Below are positions 1-12,296 of a stretch of DNA of 40,651 nt, in pieces (position 1 is the stretch's first letter; each line of letters begins with the position of its first letter). The notes under the pieces were generated by a model. That model was given only the letters and a program-made list of their open reading frames with translations. It searched no databases and was not told where the DNA came from. The translations under genes and the position numbers were made by a program. Source of the DNA: Patescibacteria group bacterium (GTDB taxonomy: Bacteria > Patescibacteriota > Gracilibacteria > UBA1369 > UBA12463); contig JBBTWG010000030.1 of assembly GCA_038062935.1 (NCBI GenBank), positions 1-40,651 of the forward strand, written 5' to 3'.

Positions 1-650
1 TCAGACCACAAATTGCCAACTGAAGCAACGTGTCTTATGTTTGGGGTACTTGCCAGTTCTTCGTATAAGCTCAACTGATAAATATTACAATCGGCAGTCG
101 TATTGTTTATTATTGGCATAAAACCGCCGACATGAAAGCTTAATGGATCACTGTTACTAATTCCAAATGACCCATTCCAGCAGGCGAGTGAAGCTTCGCG
201 ATCTGCATCCGAATCTCCTTCTTGATAGTGTGCCCACGAGCTATGTGCTGCAACTTTGTGCCGAAATTTATTAATTTTCCATGCCTTAGTCTTTCTTTTT
301 TCCTTTTCTGATCTTATCAGTAGCCGAATTTCTTCTGGCAATGGATTGAAGGCTTTTTCTAGCTCAGCGAGAGCTTTATTGAGGATCTTTTCAATATTCC
401 AAATATGAATAACATATGAAATGGTTCGTGACGTGTTTCGTAGTCGGAAATTTTCTAGGCCTTCGAAATCTAACGGTTGACCATTACTGTCAAAGAGGGG
501 GTGCTTGCAGTCGTTCAAGAATTCTTCGTAAATCCATTCTGCCATTTTAAAAATTTCGGAGGCTGCGTGAATGGGGTATGATGATGGAACTTCAAGAATT
601 CTTCCTTCTTTGTTTATCTCTACCGGGTCTTCAGAAATGTATTCAAACAT
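1..650 (-). CDS. Hypothetical protein, partial (C-terminus runs off the left edge), with a HEPN-like R-x5-H motif (FRHKVAAH)
   Basis: Absent from the supplied track because it has no stop in the window. I checked the minus frame triplet by triplet: ATG at 650 (MFEYISEDPVEINKEG...), open down to position 3, upstream in-frame stop at 669-671. The HEPN assignment rests only on the motif and the helical-looking sequence. Confidence 0.55.
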   Translation of the reverse strand, partial: MFEYISEDPVEINKEGRILEVPSSYPIHAASEIFKMAEWIYEEFLNDCKHPLFDSNGQPLDFEGLENFRLRNTSRTISYVIHIWNIEKILNKALAELEKAFNPLPEEIRLLIRSEKEKRKTKAWKINKFRHKVAAHSSWAHYQEGDSDADREASLACWNGSFGISNSDPLSFHVGGFMPIINNTTADCNIYQLSLYEELASTPNIRHVASVGNLWS

Positions 651-784
651 TGTAATGGGTGGTAATACCTAAAGAATTTTAGTATGGCGAGTTTGATCTG
701 GAATTCCATGTACTACAAGTATGCTTTTCTCTTAGAACGGAGCATGATAGGGTCTACTATATTTACTGTTTTAAGGAAATCAAA

Positions 785-1741
785 ATGGAAAATGCTCAAA
801 TTTTTTACGAAAATTTATTGAAGAATGGCCAGAGTGAAATAGATCGTCTTATTACTGAAAATGCTCATGAGCATTATTTCTTGGATTTTAAGGTAAAATC
901 AGATGATAGGGTTGAACCTGCTGATGATATTGATAAGAAGAATCTTGCAAAGGCCTTATCTGGATTTGCAAATTCTCAAGGAGGCCTATTGATTTGGGGC
1001 GTAGAGAAGAAAGATGGGAAGCCTATGAGATATAAACTTGTAAAGTCTCCTCATGCATTTATTGAATCGTTAAATAGGGCTGTTTCTCAGGTTGTGACCC
1101 CTTTCGTTGATGCAGCTGATAGCAAATTGGTATTTCAGAACAGTGATAGCGAAGGTGTTGTGGTCACATATATACCTCGGAGCGAGAAAACACCCCATAG
1201 ATCCCTTAAAGATAGATCATATTATATGAGGTCCGGGGACTCATTTTTATCGATGGAACATAGTCAGCTAGAAGATATGTTTGGTAGAAGGAATAGACCC
1301 AAATTGCATGTTATTGTTAAGGCGCATATGTATAGCGAATCTCGACCTGCTGCTACGTATTCACTTGATATAACACTAAAAAATGAAGGAAGGGCAATTA
1401 GTCAGCATTTTGGTTTTGATTTAGAGTTTCCAGCTAAAGTTTTGGATTATTCTGCTCCGTGGCATGATAGGCCAAGTTTTGTTGATCGATCGTCGGAGCT
1501 AGGCCCTATTCGATATAGAAACCATCATGATATGGAGAAAACCCCTATATATCCAGGCGAGACAATAAAGATCGCAACTAATAATTATCGCTTATCGTAT
1601 ATACATTTTCAGCTTACGAAGAATCAGTTTGAAGCCTGGAAAGATACTATCTTGCATTATAGCGTATATAGCGAAAATATGATGACACAGTCAGGCGAGA
1701 TGAGGTTTGGAGACTTGTTCTCTACTCCACCAACTTATTAG
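785..1741 (+). CDS. AlbA_2 / Schlafen-like (divergent AAA_4) domain protein with an unrecognised beta-rich C-terminal half
   Basis: The 318-aa ORF has EHYFLDFKVK ... LAKALSGFANSQGGLLIWGVEKKDGKP ... YYMRSGDSFLSMEHSQLEDMF, matching the E-x-LEFK / AFANT-GG-IGV / R-G-S pattern of Pfam AlbA_2. An AAGGA lies 9 nt before the ATG. Confidence 0.7.
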   Translation: MENAQIFYENLLKNGQSEIDRLITENAHEHYFLDFKVKSDDRVEPADDIDKKNLAKALSGFANSQGGLLIWGVEKKDGKPMRYKLVKSPHAFIESLNRAVSQVVTPFVDAADSKLVFQNSDSEGVVVTYIPRSEKTPHRSLKDRSYYMRSGDSFLSMEHSQLEDMFGRRNRPKLHVIVKAHMYSESRPAATYSLDITLKNEGRAISQHFGFDLEFPAKVLDYSAPWHDRPSFVDRSSELGPIRYRNHHDMEKTPIYPGETIKIATNNYRLSYIHFQLTKNQFEAWKDTILHYSVYSENMMTQSGEMRFGDLFSTPPTY

Positions 1742-1861
1742 AAATAAGCTATGGACGATTCTGAACAAGAGGAGGTTTTTGAGCAATCATAACCTTCTTT
1801 TATGTTTGAGTTGTAGGAACTTCCAAATGATTAAGCTCCTGAAAATTTATTCCAGACTTCT

Positions 1862-2644
1862 TCAGGAACGTATTTGAGTGCTGCTATGAATAACCTTTGG
1901 AGTTCTTCCTTCTCTTCTTTTTCCATGATCTGGATTGATTATGTTACCAGCTGAAATACATTTCAACAAAATACGCGTCTGGTATTCTTCAAGAGTGTCT
2001 TCTACTTCGGAAGTTGGATACTCTCCCTCATTGTCTTTCCATGATTTATCATTTTGTTCTTGATAGCCCAACAATGTAAGCAAGGCATCTCCCTCAACAA
2101 CAGCTTTGGAAAGACATGTTTTATAGTAGGGGGATGTTGCTACAGGATTCAGATTTTCTTTTTCGATATCTGAGCAATTATAAAATCCTTTGATTCTTGT
2201 ATTATAGTATTTCCCAAAAGAGTCGGCTTCCTCAAATTCTTTCCATGCTGATGTAGGGATGCCGCAGTATTCATAATTGTTTTTATTGAGTTTTATAATC
2301 ATGTGACCATTGCTTGAGTCATACCATGCTCCATTCACAAACGAACTCTTGGATGTATCGAGATATTCAAAATTTGAAAAATTTACTGAATCCTTCCGAT
2401 ATTTTACGTTTACAGATTTGCTCTTTTGAATAAGGAAAAATCCACTTATTATACAAAATATAGTCGTAGCGATAATGGCTATTCGTATTATCTTTTTTTT
2501 ATTCATAATCATGCTATTTTCTTTTATTTCCATCTCAACTTCTGCTCTTTCTTCTGGTGATAGATTCTCTTTTGCCTCTCTGAGCGCCTCGATAAACATC
2601 TGCTGTAATTTCTTTTTTTCCTCTGGATTTAAGATTGGCGTCAT
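1862..2644 (-). CDS. Membrane-anchored KTSC-domain protein
   Basis: The 260-aa ORF has one TM segment (IIRIAIIATTIFCIISGFFLI). It is followed by AWYDSSNGHMIIKLNKNNYEYCGIPTSAWKEFEEADSFGKYYNTRIKGFY, which fits the KTSC domain pattern. Confidence 0.6.
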   Translation of the reverse strand: MTPILNPEEKKKLQQMFIEALREAKENLSPEERAEVEMEIKENSMIMNKKKIIRIAIIATTIFCIISGFFLIQKSKSVNVKYRKDSVNFSNFEYLDTSKSSFVNGAWYDSSNGHMIIKLNKNNYEYCGIPTSAWKEFEEADSFGKYYNTRIKGFYNCSDIEKENLNPVATSPYYKTCLSKAVVEGDALLTLLGYQEQNDKSWKDNEGEYPTSEVEDTLEEYQTRILLKCISAGNIINPDHGKRREGRTPKVIHSSTQIRS

Positions 2645-2647
2645 AAT

Positions 2648-2866
2648 TTACTGTTTTTTGGAACCTTTTTTCCCGGTATATGGATTGTAATTTCCCTTTG
2701 AGGAATAGTTATCATACTTTTTTGAATTGGATGATGAGCGGTAGTGCGGTTGAATATATGTACCTTTCTTTGTAGTATAACCCTTTACGCGTGTGGCGGC
2801 ATATGCTGGAAGAGTGCTGGTAATGAGAGCTAAAGAAATAAGAATAGAAACGATCATTTTTCTCAT
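2648..2866 (-). CDS. Small secreted basic protein (signal peptide, GNYNPYTG motif)
   Basis: The 72-aa ORF has a signal peptide ending in AYA. The motif KKGTYIQPHYRSS..DNYS.KGN.NPYTGKKG recurs in small bacterial exported proteins. Its start lies 18 nt after the stop of the upstream ORF 2885..3430, and its stop 3 nt before the start of 1862..2644. Confidence 0.55.
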   Translation of the reverse strand: MRKMIVSILISLALITSTLPAYAATRVKGYTTKKGTYIQPHYRSSSNSKKYDNYSSKGNYNPYTGKKGSKKQ

Positions 2867-2884
2867 ATGAGAGATGTTAAAAAA

Positions 2885-3430
2885 TTATATGGATTCGAGA
2901 CATTGTTGGTAGCTGTATTGTTGTGAACGCTTAGTTATCTCTTCAAGCATATTTGTCCGCTGTTTTTCATATGCATCAATGTTTTGTTTTATGCTATTGA
3001 TTGGTATTTGACATAGCTCTCTACCTTGATCGTCTGTCTGTAATTTTATACATTCAAAAGTCATATTAAGCGCATCCTTCAAATCATTTTTCAATTTGTT
3101 TATTTGTGCCTGAAAATGAAAACCCTCTTCAATACTGGTTAGAGTTGTTTCAATATCTGGAAGACCTTCAATTAGTTTTATTTTGCATTTTTCTATTTCT
3201 AGATTTGTATCTTTAAATATCTTTGGCGCAATATATGGCTGACTATTTTTTTTGGTTGGTTTTGGTAACGGAGTTTCTGTTTTTTTCTTTTCGATTACAG
3301 CAGGTGCAGATTTCTGTATTTCTATCTTCGCCTGTTCATTTTTTGGTAGAAAAATTGAGTAATAATATGCCGAAGACGTGCTTGCAATCAAAATTCCACT
3401 CACTAGTGCTATTCGTAGATATTTATCCAT
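2885..3430 (-). CDS. Signal-anchored hypothetical protein
   Basis: The 181-aa ORF has an N-terminal hydrophobic segment (LRIALVSGILIASTSSAYYY), then a Lys/Pro-rich linker and a helical domain. It is first in a three-gene minus-strand string. Confidence 0.5.
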   Translation of the reverse strand: MDKYLRIALVSGILIASTSSAYYYSIFLPKNEQAKIEIQKSAPAVIEKKKTETPLPKPTKKNSQPYIAPKIFKDTNLEIEKCKIKLIEGLPDIETTLTSIEEGFHFQAQINKLKNDLKDALNMTFECIKLQTDDQGRELCQIPINSIKQNIDAYEKQRTNMLEEITKRSQQYSYQQCLESI

Positions 3431-3543
3431 TCCTGAGAAGTGTAAATGATGTCTATAAGTATCTTATTAAGACTACGTTAACACATGAAATGTGATACGC
3501 ATAGTCCGTCGCCTTATAATCATCAGAATTCTATGCTCAAGTC

Positions 3544-3765
3544 GTGAATAAAAGTAACGACATACTCAAGAAATTTGGCAGAAGAATTAAGGCACTCCGG
3601 CAGCAGAAGGGGATTACCTCTCAGATGAGTTTAGCTTTAAAAGCAGGCTTAGATAGAACGTATGTAGGAGGGATAGAAAGAGGTGAAAGGAATGTTGCTC
3701 TTAGAAATCTTGAAAAGTTAGCGAAGGCATTCGGAGTTAGCATTGAAGAACTGTTCAAATTTTGA
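3544..3765 (+). CDS. XRE-family helix-turn-helix transcriptional regulator
   Basis: The 73-aa ORF contains LRQQKGITSQMSLALKAGLDRTYVGGIERGERNVALRNLEKLAKAFGVSIEELF, a classical Cro/C1 HTH. It uses a GTG start. Confidence 0.8.
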   Translation: MNKSNDILKKFGRRIKALRQQKGITSQMSLALKAGLDRTYVGGIERGERNVALRNLEKLAKAFGVSIEELFKF

Positions 3766-4175
3766 TCCAGAGGTCGTACAATGGATTTATGTCCAAGAGA
3801 CTTACGATTAAGCAACGGAAATTTACCCAAGAATATCTGCGTTCTGGCAATGGAACAGGGGCTGTTTTAAAAACATACAATACAAAAAGTTCTGTAGTTG
3901 CAGCTTCAATTGCTCATGAGAACCTCAGAAAACCTCAGATTAAAGATCTTATTGATGAGCACGCTCTGGATGCTGCAAAGAGAATGGGTGAGCTTATTAG
4001 ACAAGATAAAAGTCTTAGCGTCGCATTCCAAGCTTCTAAGGATACACTTGATCGTGCTGGATATAAGTCGTCAACGGTACATCGAGATGACTCTAAAATT
4101 AGACAAATGACTGATCAGGAACTGGAAGAGGAAATAGCAAGTACTTTTACTCATATCTTGGCAAAAATTGGATGA
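3762..4175 (+). CDS. Phage terminase small subunit-like (Terminase_2 HTH) protein
   Basis: LTIKQRKFTQEYLRSGNGTGAVLKTY...AASIAHENLRKPQIKDLIDE matches the LT-KQ-F-EYL-GN-T-A ... ENL-KP-I pattern of TerS. The track start is a TTG at 3762 overlapping the XRE stop; the first ATG is at 3789. Confidence 0.7.
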   Translation: MIQRSYNGFMSKRLTIKQRKFTQEYLRSGNGTGAVLKTYNTKSSVVAASIAHENLRKPQIKDLIDEHALDAAKRMGELIRQDKSLSVAFQASKDTLDRAGYKSSTVHRDDSKIRQMTDQELEEEIASTFTHILAKIG

Positions 4176-4198
4176 GAGTTTTTGAATGTTCGAAAAAA

Positions 4199-4237
4199 TT
4201 GACTCAGATTGACTCAGATGTCGGTTTTTGGCATACT
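4199..4237 (+). promoter_or_regulatory. Tandem TTGACTCAGA x2, the second copy forming a -35 with a CATACT -10 (17-nt spacer)
   Basis: TTGACTCAGA occurs at 4199-4208 and 4209-4218. TTGACT (4209-4214), 17 nt, then CATACT (4232-4237). Confidence 0.35.
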
Positions 4238-4397
4238 TTGTATGATTTCTTGCAGATAGAGTAAGTTTCGCAAGAGCCTCTGTTCAATTCTACGCGTATG
4301 GGGCACGCAGCTCCAGATTGAAGAGGAAGTCTTCACTGGTTATATCCCGCTACTGATTACCGTTACTGACCTGCTACAGTAATTTAATCAGTTTTTT

Positions 4398-4616
4398 GTG
4401 GAGGCTCTAAAAAGGTTCAAAAAAATCAGTGGCAGAAGATTAGCGTCTGATGGAAGCGATATTCTTTGTGCTTCCCTTGAACCCTACAAAAGTAATGGTG
4501 ATTTTTTGAGCGATCTTGCTTCTGCTCTTGAGTCTGATTATGGCTTACAGCTATCAAACTCTGAACTTCGTAAGGCAGGTGAAAATATAGATTCTGTTCT
4601 TGGTTCTTTTCTTTGA
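4398..4616 (+). CDS. Small hypothetical protein (possible recombinase accessory factor, or simply leader sequence)
   Basis: The 72-aa ORF has a GTG start and no recognisable motif. It lies in the 478-bp gap upstream of the recombinase. Confidence 0.25.
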   Translation: MEALKRFKKISGRRLASDGSDILCASLEPYKSNGDFLSDLASALESDYGLQLSNSELRKAGENIDSVLGSFL

Positions 4617-4653
4617 TTTTTGCTATCATGAATTTAAATTTTCACCTGAACTT

Positions 4654-6489
4654 ATGGCTTTTCGAACTGTTATATATCTTCGTAAATCGTCAAAAGATAG
4701 AGAAGAGAAGCAGATTCATTCTATCGAGAGACAAAGAAAAGATATTGAGGAATATCTTGAGAAGCGTGCAAAAATAGAAGATGTTTTGAAGTCCGATTCT
4801 GATAATGATCTTTTTTATGAGGATGCCTCTGCGAAGTACGAAGGGAGGGTAGAGTTTAATCGTATGATTCAGGAGATAAAAAGAAATAAATATGATGTCT
4901 TGCTCTGTACTGATCTATCGCGTCTTTCTCGAAATGCCATTGATAATGGCATACTCGTTCAGCTCTTGGAGAAGGGGTATTTACAGGAGGTTCGTACTTT
5001 AGATAAGATTTTTACAACTTCACCCACTGACAAATTTACATTATCTCTCTTTTTGGCTGTTTCGAAGTACGAGAATGACCAGAGGGCTTTAAATACTGTC
5101 TCTGGTATGAGTAATATGCGTGCTCAGGGTGCTACTACCTTCAAGGCTCCTATGGGCTACATTAACTGTGGCGAAGAGAAGGGGAATAAATGGGTAGAAC
5201 AAGATGGCGAAAATTTTATCAAGATAAAGAGGTTATGGGCACTTTTTTTGAGTGATTCTTGGACAGTTAAGGCTCTTACTGAGGAGGCTCGTAATGTAGG
5301 AGTTACTGTTTTAGGCATTAAGGGGAGGAGATCATCTCCTGTTGAGAGTACTCTTCGTAGCATGTTTTTAAATCGCTATTACACTGGTTTTATCAAAAAT
5401 ACTGATAAAAGTGGTAATGAGACTTGGATTCAAGGACGTCATGATTCTATGGTTACGGAGGAGGAATTTCAGCAGGTGCAGCTCATTCTTCAAAAGAATG
5501 GTTACAAACATGTGAAAATGGATCGCGCTCCAGATCTTCCAGGTATTATAAAGGCTATTGCTGTCAGTGGAATCTATAAGATCAAAGATGATAATGGGAA
5601 ATTGAAGCCTGCTTCAATGATTTATGAAAAGAAGGTGCGTTATACCTGTGCCAATTGTTCTGATCGATACACTTCTAATCAGCCTAAGCCCTGTCCTGAA
5701 TGCGAAACTCCCATTAGTAAAGATACTCGAACATATGTTGATGAGCGCATGTCTCATTTTACTCAAGATCACAAGAAAAAGAACTCCATTATATTTGCTC
5801 TTGTTGAGAAATCTTTGAAGAAGGAGTTTGGGAAACTTGTTATTACAGAGGCTTTATTCAATGTTTTGAGGAGAAAGCTTTATACCATGTGGCTTGAGAA
5901 GCATAAGCTTGTTTCGATAAAGCGAAAGGATTTGAAAGTCCATATTGAGAAACTTGAAGAAGAGCGAGATGAACTTTATCGGAAGAAGTTTTTGGAGGTG
6001 AAAGATTCTGAGAAACTTATGTTTGCCACGGAGCGTGTTGAAAAAGAAATTGTGAATTATGAGCAGCAGTTAGCTGATTTAAAAGAGAGGCATGAAGAAG
6101 AATTTGAAATTGCTTGGCAAAAAATGCAGGTTTTGAGGGATGCCAAGGAGCTTTTGAGTCCAAAAATTGACTTCGAACCAAAAAAGAGGCTTATTCTATC
6201 TCTTGTTTCGAACCTTGTTTTTTACAAGGGAAAAATTGAGGTTGAATGGAAAGAACCCTTTGCTAGACTGGTAAAATCTGGTGTCGTCAAAAATATGACG
6301 TGTGCCATTTCTGGTGATTCTTTGAGTATAAAATCAACTGGCTCCCGGGGTCGGTTTCGAACCGACGACCCTCTCGTTACACTTGTCCTAAGATTTCTCA
6401 AAGGGGTGGACTATATCATCATCCCATTGGGATGCAGGGCGCTTCCGTCCCACTTTCGTGGGAAGTACTCCATAAAGGATAGTCTCTGA
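4654..6489 (+). CDS. Large serine recombinase (phage-integrase type)
   Basis: The N-terminal resolvase domain has VIYLRKSSKDREEKQIHSIERQ and DLSRLSRN. There is a recombinase domain, a zinc ribbon (CANCSDRY...CPECETP) and a long coiled coil. The track ORF starts at 4600; the first ATG is at 4654. The last ~50 codons (6339-6489) are antisense to tRNA-Asn exon 2 and the intron. Confidence 0.85.
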   Translation: MAFRTVIYLRKSSKDREEKQIHSIERQRKDIEEYLEKRAKIEDVLKSDSDNDLFYEDASAKYEGRVEFNRMIQEIKRNKYDVLLCTDLSRLSRNAIDNGILVQLLEKGYLQEVRTLDKIFTTSPTDKFTLSLFLAVSKYENDQRALNTVSGMSNMRAQGATTFKAPMGYINCGEEKGNKWVEQDGENFIKIKRLWALFLSDSWTVKALTEEARNVGVTVLGIKGRRSSPVESTLRSMFLNRYYTGFIKNTDKSGNETWIQGRHDSMVTEEEFQQVQLILQKNGYKHVKMDRAPDLPGIIKAIAVSGIYKIKDDNGKLKPASMIYEKKVRYTCANCSDRYTSNQPKPCPECETPISKDTRTYVDERMSHFTQDHKKKNSIIFALVEKSLKKEFGKLVITEALFNVLRRKLYTMWLEKHKLVSIKRKDLKVHIEKLEEERDELYRKKFLEVKDSEKLMFATERVEKEIVNYEQQLADLKERHEEEFEIAWQKMQVLRDAKELLSPKIDFEPKKRLILSLVSNLVFYKGKIEVEWKEPFARLVKSGVVKNMTCAISGDSLSIKSTGSRGRFRTDDPLVTLVLRFLKGVDYIIIPLGCRALPSHFRGKYSIKDSL

Positions 6490-6638
6490 ACCTTCCCCGC
6501 CTTGGCGGGGCTTGGCTGCGGATTGCCTTAGCTTTCGCTTTAGGTTTCCCGCAATTCACCCTGTTTTTCCAGTGTCATTACTGACAAAGGCTGCAATCTA
6601 ATTTACAGCGAGATGCTCTGCCCCTGAGCTACCCGGGA
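6339..6638 (-). tRNA. tRNA-Asn(GUU), split by a group I intron (exons 6638-6605 and 6379-6339)
   Basis: The joined exons give a 75-nt cloverleaf: acceptor UCCCGGG/CCCGGGA, D stem GCUC/GAGC, anticodon stem UCUCG/CGAGA, loop CUGUUAA. T arm GUCGG-UUCGAAA-CCGAC, discriminator G73, encoded CCA. U1-A72 and G73 match E. coli tRNA-Asn. Confidence 0.85.
6380..6604 (-). ncRNA. Group I (IC3-like) intron in the anticodon loop, between positions 35 and 36
   Basis: Conserved core strings GGGAAACCUAAA, AAGGCAAUCC, AGCCAAGCC, GAAGGUUCAGAGACUA and AUAGUCC are present. Exon GCUGU pairs with intron GCAGC (P1) with U.G at the splice site. The terminal G is at 6380. There is a GUAA-capped hairpin (UGUCAGUAAUGACA) and no internal ORF. 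Confidence 0.8.
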
Positions 6639-6748
6639 ACGTGTTGGCAATGAACAAGATGCCTTTGCAATAGAGGTCTTTTGCGCAAGGCGAACCAAAC
6701 TATAGCGAACTCTTCGTGTGATTTCAATTCAAAAGTTTTTTGCTGTTT

Positions 6749-7936
6749 TCAAGCCGGGTCCAGGACGAAGATTTCTCGGCCGACGTTCTGGTCTGGGCGG
6801 TCGTAGAGGAGTGTTTTGCGGGTTGGGTGATAGCCGGCTTTTGTGATTTCGGCTTCGCTTTTGGTTTTTTGGATTTCTGTGAGTGGGAGGAGCTCTCTCA
6901 TAATGAAGCCGTTTTTTTTGATTTCTTCGTGGATTCCTGGGATGAAGAAATCTTTTTGGATGGTTTTGTGGAAGGGGAGTGCGAAGACGATCGGGACGCC
7001 GAAATGGAAGAGTTTTTTCAGTGCGTCTTTGTAGAGCGGTTCGAGTTTTCTTTGTGTTTGGATGGCTTCCTGTTCGGTTGGTTTTTTGTCGAAGACGGGG
7101 CCGAGATAGGACTCTGCGACGATGAGATCTGGAGGCTGGGGGATATCCGATATTTCGATTTTTGTCGCATCTTTCAGGAAAATTTTGACGACTTGATCTG
7201 CAGCGCCTTCCATATTTTTGTTCGTGCCTTCGATGGCTTTGTCGCTGATGTCGGAACCGATGACTTTGTAGCCCATGTGGATGGCTTCGGTGAGCACTCC
7301 GCCGCTGCCGCAGAATGGGTCGTAGACAATACTTGTGTGCTCGTCGTCGCTTTTGTAGGCGCCTTTCGCAGGTACGCCTGCGAGGTTGACCATCATTTGT
7401 GCGAGTTTTGGTGGGAGCATGCCGGATCCGGAGTCTCTGAATGTTTTGCCGTAATCTCGTTCGCTGTAGGCTCGGAAATTTTGGACGGCTCTGATTTTTG
7501 TTAATTCAAAGCCATTTTTTGTATCTCCGATGACTTCGAAATGTTCGCCTTTTCCTCCGATGTATTTTTCTTGATAGCGGCTCTTGATTCCTTCCTCGTT
7601 TAAGTTTTTTTTAATTTTTTGTAATGTTTTTTTTATGTTTTGTTCATCTCGAGCTGCTAACGTTTCGGTAGTTACGGAGAAGAGCATCTTTTTTCCGTCA
7701 TTTACTTTCTTGATTTCTTCGATGATTTTTTCTTCTGAAAATTCACCCAGGCTCTCTGCGATTTTTCTTGTTCCGCCGAGGTTTTCCAGGATTTTTTCGA
7801 GATCCGGTTCTTTGGTGAATTTCACTTCTACTATTTTTTCACCCATTTTTTCTATGGATTTTTCTCCGAAAACTGCGACGAGTTCTGCGAGTGAGATGAG
7901 TTCTTTTCTGCCGAGAAAGAAGATGTATTTTTTCAT
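6749..7936 (-). CDS. SAM-dependent methyltransferase, UPF0020/Trm11-like putative RNA methylase
   Basis: The 395-aa ORF has LPPKLAQMMVNLAG and motif I VYDPFCGSGGVLTEA..IGSDIS. Motif IV is divergent (AESYLGP instead of DPPY). Confidence 0.65.
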   Translation of the reverse strand: MKKYIFFLGRKELISLAELVAVFGEKSIEKMGEKIVEVKFTKEPDLEKILENLGGTRKIAESLGEFSEEKIIEEIKKVNDGKKMLFSVTTETLAARDEQNIKKTLQKIKKNLNEEGIKSRYQEKYIGGKGEHFEVIGDTKNGFELTKIRAVQNFRAYSERDYGKTFRDSGSGMLPPKLAQMMVNLAGVPAKGAYKSDDEHTSIVYDPFCGSGGVLTEAIHMGYKVIGSDISDKAIEGTNKNMEGAADQVVKIFLKDATKIEISDIPQPPDLIVAESYLGPVFDKKPTEQEAIQTQRKLEPLYKDALKKLFHFGVPIVFALPFHKTIQKDFFIPGIHEEIKKNGFIMRELLPLTEIQKTKSEAEITKAGYHPTRKTLLYDRPDQNVGREIFVLDPA

Positions 7937-8127
7937 TCTGGGCGTCAGTATACTGGCAGTTTTCTTTTTCGGCTACTGTATCGGGCTGAATGGCTTTTTT
8001 GCCCGAAATCACTTCGATTTCCAGTTCACGCAAAAAGACATTAATGCAGACTTTCCTTAGATGAACGTCAATTGTTTTTTTCTCTTGAGTTTGCTACATT
8101 TTTTATACTCTTTAAACAACTTTTTTT

Positions 8128-8607
8128 ATGGCAATGTCTTTGAATCGAGTGCAGCTGATTGGTAATCTCACTCGTGATCCTGAGAGTCGACAGATTCCTG
8201 GAGGTCAGATGGTGGCGACTTTTTCGATTGCGACAAATTATACTTGGACCGATCCTGCTGGTCAGAAGAAGGAAAAGGCGGAATTTCATAATATCGTGGC
8301 ATGGAGGAAGCTCGCGGAAATTTGCACCCAATATCTCCGAAAAGGTGGAAAAGTGTTCGTGGAAGGTCGCATGCAGACTCGTGAGTGGGAAGGTGAGGAT
8401 GGTGTGAAGCGTTCGAAAGTGGAGATCGTGCTCGACAATATGATTATGCTCGATCGACGAGGAAATCCTGCGGAAGGTGGCTCGGCCTTTGGTGCGGCTG
8501 CTGAACCTCGACAACATCAGTCTGTTGATGAAAAGATGGATGCTCCGCAATATGCTTCTTCTGAGCCAATGGCGCAGGAGGTCGCGATCGACGATTTACC
8601 ATTCTGA
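8128..8607 (+). CDS. ssb: Single-stranded DNA-binding protein
   Basis: LNRVQLIGNLTRDPE...FHNIVAWRKLAE...GRMQTREWE OB fold, with an acidic C-terminal tip DDLPF. Confidence 0.92.
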   Translation: MAMSLNRVQLIGNLTRDPESRQIPGGQMVATFSIATNYTWTDPAGQKKEKAEFHNIVAWRKLAEICTQYLRKGGKVFVEGRMQTREWEGEDGVKRSKVEIVLDNMIMLDRRGNPAEGGSAFGAAAEPRQHQSVDEKMDAPQYASSEPMAQEVAIDDLPF

Positions 8608-8626
8608 AAAATCAACGCATAGGAAA

Positions 8627-8671
8627 GAAGGCATTTGTCACTCCTGTAGTATAGAATGAACAAATGCCTTC
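8627..8671 (+). terminator. 12-bp stem hairpin after ssb (no U tract)
   Basis: GAAGGCATTTGT (8627-8638) pairs with ACAAATGCCTTC (8660-8671), with a 21-nt loop. There is no downstream T run, so an intrinsic-terminator role is uncertain. Confidence 0.35.
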
Positions 8672-9157
8672 AAGACTGCGTTTCTTCGATGAGATTTCAT
8701 CTGACACTTTTTTTGCGAGTGCAGGAGATCATGCATCGAGTGCAGTAGGTGACGAGTAGCGACGATTTCCTCGAACCCCCGTGTTTGAACGGTGTTCCCC
8801 ACTGTTCTTTGGTGTCTTATTTTTTGACGTGAACACCTACGTCCTTTTGTTTTTGTTTTTTCGCCCTCTCGAAAGAGAAACGAATTTTTTTGTATTTTTG
8901 TTTTTGTAGGTGCAACCTTAGAAAAGTTGCGGCAGGCATTCGTCGTGCCTGTAATCGAAAAGTAGGGGGGAGGGTTGCCGAAGTTTTGTGATTTCTTGAG
9001 AAATCCACCTTCGTACTTTTTGTTTGCGTGTTGTGAAAGAACGTATTCTGGGTATTGTACCATTTTTTAGCTTTGGCTTCAAGACCTTCTATGCTATATT
9101 CTTCGAGCCTTTACGCGTCTTTTTGAAATCACATCATTGTACAATAATACTTCGACA

Positions 9158-9745
9158 ATGTCAAATACTCAGAAAGGACTTTTGGTACTCATTGTGGGAC
9201 CCTCTGGATCCGGGAAGGGAACGGTTGTTTCTGCCCTGAAAAAACGGCATCCAGACTACGTTTTTCCTGTTTCTGCTACCACGCGTGATCCACGCCCGAG
9301 CGAGGTGGATGGTCAGGTGTATCGTTTTATTTCCAAAGAAAATTTTGAGCAGGGGATCGACGCTGGTGATTTTTTGGAATGGGCTGAAGTCCATAAGAAT
9401 AATTACTATGGAACACCAAAACAGCCGATTCTTGACGCTTTGGATGCCGGGAAAGTCGTCGTGCGTGAAGTTGATATCCAGGGATTTTTGTCGATTCGAC
9501 AGGTTATTTTGAGGGAGGAACTTGTTTCAATTTTCCTGTTGGTGAAAGATTTGAACGAATTAAAATCTCGCATTCTGAGGCGCGGAAAGATGTCTGACGA
9601 AGAAATGGCTCGCCGCATGGTGAGTGCCGAGAAAGAAATTGCCGAAGCGTATAAATGTAATTATCGCGTTGAAAGTCCGCAGGGACAGATTCCGAGGATC
9701 GTGGAGGAGGTGGAGGGGATTATTGAGAAAAGTCGAAGAGTGTAG
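9158..9745 (+). CDS. gmk: Guanylate kinase
   Basis: GPSGSGKGT P-loop, SATTRDPRPSEVDGQVYRF and EWAEVHKNNYYGT. The track start is a TTG at 9137; the first ATG is at 9158. Confidence 0.9.
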   Translation: MSNTQKGLLVLIVGPSGSGKGTVVSALKKRHPDYVFPVSATTRDPRPSEVDGQVYRFISKENFEQGIDAGDFLEWAEVHKNNYYGTPKQPILDALDAGKVVVREVDIQGFLSIRQVILREELVSIFLLVKDLNELKSRILRRGKMSDEEMARRMVSAEKEIAEAYKCNYRVESPQGQIPRIVEEVEGIIEKSRRV

Positions 9746-9801: not shown

Positions 9802-9875
9802 TGGGGATTCGCCAAGTGGTAAGGCACCGCCCTCTGGAGGCGGCATCGGGGGTTCGAATCCCTCATCCCCAGCCA
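9802..9875 (+). tRNA. tRNA-Gln(CUG)
   Basis: The 74-nt cloverleaf has acceptor UGGGGAU/AUCCCCA, anticodon stem CCGCC/GGCGG and loop CUCUGGA. T arm GGGGG-UUCGAAU-CCCUC, G73, encoded CCA. It closely resembles E. coli tRNA-Gln. Confidence 0.9.
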
Positions 9876-11320: not shown

Positions 11321-11890
11321 ATGAATATTCAATCCGCAAAATTTCTGAAAAGTGTGGTTGGCCCCGACGTCCTTTTCGAGGATGGGAGGCCGCAGATTGC
11401 TTTTATTGGGCGGTCGAATTGTGGCAAATCGAGCACGATTAATGCTTTGACGAAGCAGGGTGGTTTGGCCAAGACGAGCGCTTTTCCTGGGCGAACGCAG
11501 CAGATGAACGTTTTTTTGGTCAATCAATCTTTGTATTTTGTGGATCTTCCTGGTTATGGTTTTACGAAAACTTCTGCAGAGGGTCGGGAAAAACTGCAAC
11601 AATTAATTCATTGGTATTTGTTGAATTCGCGATATGAGCAGAAAAAAGTTGTGCTGATCGTCGATGCCAACGTGGGTTTGACGCGCGAAGATTCACAGAT
11701 GCTCTATAGTCTCGAAGAAAAAGGAAAAGATATTATTATTGCGGCGAACAAGATTGATAAAATCAAGAAATCGGAATATGTGAAAAAGCTGCAGAAGATC
11801 CAAGACGAAGTTGGTGAACATGAGATTGTTCCCTATTCTGCCGAGAAAAATATTGGCGTGAAGGAGTTGGTGAATGCGATTCTTGCGTAG
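11321..11890 (+). CDS. engB: Ribosome biogenesis GTPase YsxC/EngB
   Basis: IAFIGRSNCGKSSTINALT, FPGRTQ, VDLPGYGF and NKIDK are present. Confidence 0.9.
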   Translation: MNIQSAKFLKSVVGPDVLFEDGRPQIAFIGRSNCGKSSTINALTKQGGLAKTSAFPGRTQQMNVFLVNQSLYFVDLPGYGFTKTSAEGREKLQQLIHWYLLNSRYEQKKVVLIVDANVGLTREDSQMLYSLEEKGKDIIIAANKIDKIKKSEYVKKLQKIQDEVGEHEIVPYSAEKNIGVKELVNAILA

Positions 11891-11894
11891 ATTT

Positions 11895-12296
11895 CTATAA
11901 ATTGACCGGTCTTCTCTGCTCTTTGATTTCGCCTCTATGCGCTTTGTCGTGTAGAATTTTTTCTTTGGCGCGTTTGGAACGTTTTTGTTTTTGCTTTTTA
12001 ATTTTGTAGATTTTTTGTGCCAGATCTGACTTTTTTCCTTCGATCCGTTCTTCGATTTTCAGAATAAGAAGTTTGTATGCGGAGATTCGGTTTTTACTTT
12101 GTTCTCGGTGTTTTTGGCATCTCACGATAATTCCGGTTGGGATGTGCTTGAGCATGACGCAGCTGGAAGTTTTGTTGATTTTTTGTCCGCCTTTTCCGCT
12201 GCCGGTGATGAACTGTTCCGTGATGTCGTGCTGAAAAACACCGAGTTTTTCGGCTTTTTCGAGGATGTGTGGTGGGAGTTCGATGAAGAAACTCAT
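11895..12296 (-). CDS. arfB: Peptidyl-tRNA hydrolase ArfB-type ribosome rescue factor (RF-1 domain, GGQ)
   Basis: The 133-aa ORF has GSGKGGQKINKTSSCV and a Lys/Arg-rich C-terminal tail. Confidence 0.8.
   Translation of the reverse strand: MSFFIELPPHILEKAEKLGVFQHDITEQFITGSGKGGQKINKTSSCVMLKHIPTGIIVRCQKHREQSKNRISAYKLLILKIEERIEGKKSDLAQKIYKIKKQKQKRSKRAKEKILHDKAHRGEIKEQRRPVNL

Follow-up and report, generated by a model that had tools for sequence, protein, structure and literature searches.

A chromosomal tRNA-Asn(GUU) gene of a Peregrinibacteria-like groundwater bacterium of the Candidate Phyla Radiation (CPR) is very probably split between U35 and U36 by a group I intron that splices itself, belongs to the Asn.4Ug class and carries no open reading frame (ORF). 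The gene lies at 6339-6638 of contig JBBTWG010000030.1 (GenBank assembly GCA_038062935.1), which was analysed from position 1 to 40,651; this whole 40.6-kb stretch is called the window below, and all parts of the split gene are on its minus strand. The anatomy and conservation of the intron and the positions of its two junctions are matters of direct observation.

Exon 1 (6605..6638, 34 nt), which reads TCCCGGGTAGCTCAGGGGCAGAGCATCTCGCTGT from 6638 to 6605, supplies the acceptor 5' strand, the D arm, the anticodon stem 5' strand and C32 U33 G34 U35, and exon 2 (6339..6379, 41 nt), which reads TAACGAGAGGGTCGTCGGTTCGAAACCGACCCCGGGAGCCA from 6379 to 6339, runs from U36 A37 A38 to the encoded CCA. 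The 225 nt between them (6380..6604), identified as a group I intron by a match to Rfam family RF00028, covariation and conserved columns, begin with AAAUUAG, finish with AAGUG and hold no sense ORF, and they interrupt the anticodon loop between U35 and U36. A sequence-only reading of this DNA had already proposed this arrangement, including the absence of an ORF, and its exon and intron coordinates and sequences on 6339-6638(-) proved exact to the base. When introns are allowed, ARAGORN reports tRNA-Asn(gtt) i(35,225), and from the joined exons it returns the clean 75-nt cloverleaf that had been foreseen, with loop CUGUUAA, anticodon GUU, U1-A72, G73 and an encoded CCA. U1-A72 and G73 are identity elements of bacterial tRNA-Asn. 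In default mode the same program misses the split gene, its sole call in the window being a tRNA-Gln at 9802-9875, and no second tRNA-Asn was found by ARAGORN within the 40.6 kb.

Both junctions are fixed by an intron-less allele. L244, a 3,385-bp contig from a separate sequencing run (Logan SRR21802938) that was found by exact match to the adjacent methyltransferase protein, carries at 3126-3200 the two window exons joined base for base (exon 1 at 3126-3159 and exon 2 at 3160-3200, each identical), and this uninterrupted tRNA-Asn scores 64.6 bits on RF00005. The counterparts of exon 2 in L249 and L250 are identical as well, and the DNA of the intron-less gene includes GCTGTTAACG. Because the L244 gene equals the joined exons, the 5' junction lies just past U35 (6605) and the 3' junction just past G6380, in agreement with the earlier placement of the insertion between nucleotides 35 and 36 and with its claim that the intron ends in G. 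An alternative splice, CU/…G/UGUAA, with a Thr-like anticodon, is ruled out by the same allele. A sister strain thus already encodes the predicted product of exon ligation as a gene. Its gmk, orf141, SSB and methyltransferase proteins match the window proteins with 100% identity, and its DNA differs from window 6800-9390 by 2 mismatches in the whole stretch. A promoter-like site, TTGAAA-17-TATAGT, named for its consensus match (10/12 positions), lies upstream of the tRNA at 6699..6727 (-), and its TATAGT is also found in L244.

Identity as a group I intron is supported by the Rfam Intron_gpI model (RF00028), which matches 6614-6387(-) over model positions 1-253 with 103.9 bits (E 4.4e-26), compared with a gathering score of 50 bits. 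The minimum free energy (MFE) fold of the intron alone, with a z-score of -3.5 against shuffles, gives P2, P3, P4, P5, P6/P6a, two small hairpins, P8 and P9, and the remaining helices are seen in an alignment of 15 diverse related Asn introns. P1 (6590..6610) joins exon GCUGU (6609-6605) and the first intron nucleotide, A1, to the internal guide UGCAGC (6595-6590), with U35 (6605) wobbling with G at the 5' splice site; P1 with the U.G had been proposed earlier, and its 6 pairs, the U.G among them, are present in 15/15 introns. The P2 hairpin (6573..6586; MFE fold) shows compensatory changes in 7/7 pairs. The P3 5' strand CAGGGUG (6557..6563) pairs with CGCCCUG (6435..6441; placed by the alignment), the two outer pairs covarying. 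The P4-P5-P4' domain (6517..6553), UGCGGG ... UCCGCA around P5/P5a, and P6/P6a (6490..6516), whose P6a covaries in 7/7 pairs, are supported by both the MFE fold and the alignment. The P7 5' strand, G-A(bulge)-GACUA (6480..6486), forms 6 pairs, invariant in 15/15, with UAGUCC (6408..6413; again from the alignment), and by analogy its G-C pair would be the guanosine-binding site. Two hairpins, a P7.1-like UCC/GGA and a P7.2-like CCCAC-GAAA-GUGGG (6449..6479; MFE fold), follow, in the same layout as in locus L251. P8 (6420..6434) covaries in 5/6 pairs and P9, with its GAAA loop (6387..6404; MFE fold), in 6/7, and the terminal G (omega G, 6380), fixed by L244, precedes the 3' splice site.

RNAalifold returned 50 pairs from the 15-intron alignment, 31 of them with compensatory changes, and the addition of P7 (as a pseudoknot) and P9 gave a 63-pair structure that was scored on the same alignment. 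In this structure 95.6% of cells form standard pairs, versus 36-43% after the partners are slid by 1-3 columns, and changes on both sides occur in 37/63 pairs; the observed values were reached by 0/500 shuffles. Covariation supports P2-P6, P7.1, P8 and P9. P9 pairs in 80% of cells, a low figure that is partly due to the alignment. P1 with its U.G wobble and P7 with its G-C pair beside the bulged A are paired in 15/15 and never vary, so they count as conserved only, without covariation evidence. A larger alignment, made of the window copy and 81 other short Asn introns (82 in all), has 79 columns with conservation of 95% or more, and the window copy matches 79/79. Because the helices form and all family-conserved positions are kept, the window copy retains the intact anatomy of an active group I intron, and the foldable P3-P7 core that the sequence-only reading had wanted to see is present.

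On this anatomy, splicing would proceed along the usual two steps. Transcription would give a single precursor of ~300 nt, the intron of which would adopt the P1-P9 fold, carrying two additional hairpins in its P7-P3' interval. A free guanosine, docked at the G-C pair of P7, would attack after U35, held in the P1 U.G wobble; the terminal G would then take the guanosine site and exon 1 would attack the 3' splice site. The ligated product would be a 75-nt tRNA, identical to the one that the intron-less sister strain encodes directly.

The host tRNA had been thought unusual, which was not borne out. Williams (2020, bioRxiv 10.1101/2020.01.27.920355) raised the classical four intron-bearing tRNA types to 21, and the seed alignment of that preprint contains 'Pam37.Asn.4Ug', an intron of tRNA-Asn at this very loop position that has U at -1 and ends in G. 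The window intron has these same features: host tRNA-Asn(GUU), insertion between loop nucleotides 4 and 5 (CUGU/UAA), U-1 and terminal G. The two also share the core strings GGGUGAAUU..GGAAACC, AGAGACUA, AGCGCCC, AUGAxAUAGUCCACCCC and ..AAGUG, as well as an extra hairpin region between P7 and P3'. They differ in size, the seed being ~273 nt and the window intron 225 nt with a short P1 loop and P2, and in the form of the P7-P3' insert: that of the window makes two small hairpins, a layout shared with L251, L223 and L224. The seed is apparently of cyanobacterial source, its start matching the Floridaenema locus L149, whereas the window belongs to a CPR bacterium.

How widespread this class is was examined by scanning a single genome of each GTDB species for a pattern made of the P3'-P8-P7' core and the 3' junction. 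At least 119 loci were found among the GTDB species representatives, and inspection gave at least 110 species with an Asn body, a UCC… start, …CUGU/intron…G/UAA… and G73. Among the hosts listed are Cyanobacteria (Microcoleus, Tychonema, Phormidium, Floridaenema, Hormoscilla) and Patescibacteria (Saccharibacteria, Peribacteria, Peregrinibacteria, Uhr-, Adler-, Magasanik- and Buchananbacteria), and the matches listed further include Chloroflexi, Acidobacteriota, Binatia, Omnitrophota and delta- and gammaproteobacterial metagenome-assembled genomes (MAGs). Among the matches listed, Asn introns are 214 to 898 nt long, and the window copy is one of the shortest. The split tRNA-Asn is therefore a new member of an already catalogued, widespread class, Asn.4Ug, and not a new kind. 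A literature search for tRNA-Asn together with group I introns returned mitochondrial and plastid papers only, apart from irrelevant cyanobacterial 'introns' of 22-49 nt, and found no experiment on any Asn intron.

Annotation of these genes is error-prone. With introns allowed, ARAGORN labelled 53 of the 110 Asn loci among the matches listed as Asn and 57 as tRNA-Thr(UGU) or tRNA-His, because the GU repeat at both junctions leaves the splice position ambiguous between two 7-nt loops; the mislabelled Asn introns are those that do not start with A. The 'Thr.2Ug' seed of the Williams alignment (Pgr210, P1 CUGUC/GGCAG) may be similarly mislabelled.

The relation of the window intron to the long-known bacterial tRNA introns can be judged from its P7-P3' region. 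In subgroup IC3 a short junction, free of extra helices, links the 5' strand of P7 to the 3' strand of P3, and helices at this place are a hallmark of subgroup IA. Self-splicing of classical IC3 tRNA introns has been demonstrated experimentally. The Azoarcus intron is one for which this was done (PMC13168695). Classical IC3 tRNA introns, found in Leu(UAA) of cyanobacteria and plastids, Ile(CAU) of Azoarcus, Arg(CCU) and fMet, also sit in the anticodon loop and, like the window intron, are small, mostly ORF-less and built on a P3-P8 plus P4-P6 core with U.G at the 5' splice site. The sequence-only reading had noted strings of the Anabaena tRNA-Leu and Azoarcus tRNA-Ile introns, and a classical IC3 intron closely related to those two and transposed to a new tRNA would explain both the core strings common to the two groups and the fact that all bacterial tRNA introns in the database cited by Williams are IC3. 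The five strings quoted in that reading are indeed present; what they reflect is a shared core only, since pairwise alignment matches 61-62% of window intron positions to the Azoarcus, Synechococcus-Leu and Arg seeds versus 71-73% to the Asn.4Ug, Lys.2Ug and Leu.1Ug seeds (Pam37.Asn.4Ug, 71%). Nor does the window intron have the short P7-P3' junction without extra helices: relative to the Rfam consensus it holds a 36-nt insert there, folding into two hairpins. Within the preprint's seed alignment (Williams, 2020, bioRxiv 10.1101/2020.01.27.920355), only the Asn.4Ug, Lys.2Ug, Phe.2Ug, Leu.1Ug and tmRNA seeds occupy this stretch, and the seeds of the classical types (Leu, Arg, fMet and Ile2) show GA-C alone. 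The host and the loop position differ as well. The core motif itself is abundant in phage, with at least 120 matches in viral contigs, and is too broad to discriminate; among the viral matches listed are interrupted phage tRNA genes with the ARAGORN labels Thr, Tyr, Lys and Gln (unverified by eye), and none of those listed is labelled Asn. Classical IC3 membership is thus improbable, and by its sequence the window intron is best placed outside classical IC3 and nearer the newer classes.

Two other explanations question whether the locus works or whose it is. The intron might have decayed so that the locus is a dead tRNA gene, replaced by another tRNA-Asn elsewhere in the genome. This would suit a search whose scope was the window rather than the whole genome, and an intron that is not obligatory for the lineage, as the intron-less allele in the population indicates; yet all family-conserved positions are intact, all helices form, the exons show 100% identity with the intron-less allele, which looks functional, the promoter-like site is kept, and an intron occupies the same site in orthologous loci of at least 4 other species, so that we regard a dead gene as very improbable. 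It is still harder to credit that an adjacent serine-recombinase island or prophage carries the tRNA-Asn or its intron as cargo, or delivered it on integration, so that it would not be the host's own. Such an origin is suggested by a recombinase ORF at 4654-6489(+) that overlaps exon 2 and about half of the intron (110 nt) on the opposite strand, by a small terminase subunit nearby, by a drop in GC content (35-40% left of ~6000-6500 versus 42-49% to the right), by the absence of the island from the one intron-less strain, L244, and by the rearrangement of the upstream leader between the window and L244. Against it, Peribacteria and Peregrinibacteria preserve the order tRNA-Asn, methyltransferase, SSB, gmk both where the intron is there (L135, L141, L145, L188) and where it is missing (L244, L250), which makes the tRNA-Asn gene chromosomal, and in L145 and L141 no recombinase stands beside the tRNA. 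Similarity to the island-free L244 stops exactly past CCA (junction 6338/6339), recombinase residues ~557-611 are merely the antisense of tRNA and intron, at least 12 of 47 recombinase tails read into an intron-less tRNA-Asn (one checked on DNA, L252), and introns without islands and islands without introns both occur.

A working, host-owned split gene is accordingly the reading we retain, and several points weigh against it. Catalysis, that is guanosine-dependent self-splicing, is something we infer from anatomy, and the window P9 has a 2x2 U.U internal loop in the MFE fold. No convincing P10 was seen on inspection of the window intron by eye. The tRNA-Asn gene count covers the 40.6-kb window. 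The host, finally, is identified by synteny and best similarities and not by marker genes, which together point to a Peregrinibacteria-like/Peribacteria (CPR/Patescibacteria) groundwater bacterium. The window corresponds to positions 1-40651 of a 71-kb groundwater metagenome contig (ENA ERZ1292633, Hain_H41_02um).

With its 225 nt, the window copy seems to be a pared-down member, lacking an endonuclease, of a family in which longer introns hold an HNH-like ORF. Of 111 Asn introns (the window and the matches listed), 29 are at least 450 nt long, and ~28 of the 110 loci listed encode, within the P1 loop of the intron (past the 5' splice site and ahead of the internal guide), a conserved protein of ~105 aa. 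This protein shows the HNH endonuclease pattern CxxCG…HH…CxxCH and scores below the curated cut-off of Pfam HNH (E 0.0015); it may represent a poorly modelled homing-endonuclease family. A tblastn search of the relatives' HNH-like proteins against the window gave nothing significant. The 3' end of the HNH-like ORF (~105-115 aa) overlaps the internal guide, …ITQLP being AUUACGCAGCUUCC. The closest relative, L251 (GCA_900089805.1), has a core 81-87% identical to that of the window, the same junctions and the same P7.1/P7.2 layout, and differs in that its P1 loop encodes the HNH-like protein (L251 8039-8368 (-)) and its P5 has a large insert. The syntenic L253 (GCA_020851415.1, Candidatus Peregrinibacteria) also has the site, the junctions and an HNH-like ORF in the P1 loop (11890-12234 (-)), and its intron (11746-11999 (-)) belongs to a different core lineage, without P7.1/P7.2, scoring 48 bits on RF00028 and resembling the Tyr.4Ug and Thr.2Ug seeds in its core. 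Two lineages at tRNA-Asn 35/36 imply that the site was colonised more than once.

At the orthologous locus the intron is present in the window, L135, L141, L145, L188 and L253 and absent in L244 and L250. This patchy distribution, together with the within-species polymorphism, fits a cycle of invasion, endonuclease loss and intron loss, as far as sequence comparison can reveal it. The strains with the intron-plus and intron-minus alleles differ at 2 of ~2,600 adjacent bases, and near the insertion site the differences are 3 single-nucleotide polymorphisms at 6761-6788 and two leader indels, within ~185 nt upstream. Divergence concentrated within ~185 nt of the insertion site is compatible with a co-conversion or recombination tract, and the leader difference could mark such a tract tied to intron gain or loss. 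Either a gain in the window strain or a loss in the L244 strain is compatible with the data. That the intron is moving or being lost at present within one groundwater CPR species is a possibility we hold only tentatively. As the window copy has no endonuclease, movement would need an HNH enzyme in trans, which would come from ORF-bearing sister introns, or reverse splicing, or homologous recombination, and allele exchange might occur together with the abutting serine-recombinase island. From the shared TATAGT box to the tRNA start, the leader is ~60 nt long in the window and 17 nt in L244, and upstream of the box the window has a 25-nt insertion relative to L244 (window 6643-6733 / L244 3099-3121).

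The principles of group I intron biology are unchanged by this example, which offers useful extras in its natural intron-less allele, its endonuclease-bearing relatives and an annotation pitfall. The within-species presence/absence pair confirms the junctions exactly and without experiment, and it is a natural system for intron gain and loss in an uncultured lineage. Should the genome have no other tRNA-Asn gene, as is plausible given the small size of CPR genomes, all asparagine codons would depend on ribozyme activity. Default tRNA finders miss the split tRNA-Asn, as ARAGORN does on the window, and missed or mislabelled genes would make routinely annotated CPR genomes appear to lack tRNA-Asn or to have the wrong isoacceptor.

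The region left of the tRNA is an island or prophage remnant. Its large serine recombinase (611 aa, 4654-6489 (+)) abuts and overlaps the tRNA-Asn 3' end. The island further encodes proteins with a Schlafen/AlbA_2 domain (785-1741) and a KTSC domain (1862-2644), as well as the small terminase subunit (3789-4175). It is cut off by the start of the contig, and a contig of one NCBI MAG is broken at window 4377. A megablast comparison of window 1-9000 with a phage collection gave no match, and a search of viral contigs for recombinase relatives gave one distant match only. The downstream flank of L244 had no counterpart in any fetched locus, and the far end of the island was not found there. The overlap of the recombinase with the tRNA is read-through, because the phage integrase profile covers residues 4-536 only, residues ~557-597 match other loci solely as the antisense translation of conserved tRNA and intron, and similarity to L244 ends after CCA.

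Recombinases stand convergent against the tRNA-Asn(GUU) 3' end in many CPR and other genomes, without a stop codon of their own before the tRNA. Such ORFs occur at L252 6001-7797, L253 10001-11761, L251 6001-7785 and in L147, L175, L201, L230 and L233. Their last 20-50 residues are antisense tRNA (…GSRGRIRTDDQLVNSQLLYH or WLPRLDSNQ…), and in the window antisense exon 2 and intron. Among the 47 closer homologs compared (37-100% identical to the window protein), 12 tails read through an intron-less tRNA-Asn(GUU) (…RTxDxxVNSxLLYH), 13 are in another frame (W-L-P-x-L-D-S-N-Q…) that on hand back-translation is the tRNA-Asn 3' half, 3, including that of the window, read into an intron, and 4 are cut at the tRNA end; in the DNA of L252 the recombinase homolog overlaps an intron-less tRNA-Asn. 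Annotated C-termini of these recombinases are partly artefactual, and the island family thus targets the tRNA-Asn 3' end with or without an intron. Specificity for a tRNA 3' end seems, to our knowledge, to be uncommon among serine recombinases. Since homologs abut intron-less tRNA-Asn too, island and intron look independent. The tRNA-Asn as phage cargo was rejected on the conserved chromosomal synteny, and the island as intron carrier was dismissed, as most of the homologous recombinases run on into tRNA-Asn genes that lack an intron.

Farther from the tRNA, window 9391-9685, within gmk, differs from L244 by 31 mismatches clustered in 300 bp, beside the adjoining 2.6 kb with 2 differences. All 31 are silent, because the proteins are identical, and the mosaic suggests frequent homologous recombination in this CPR population.

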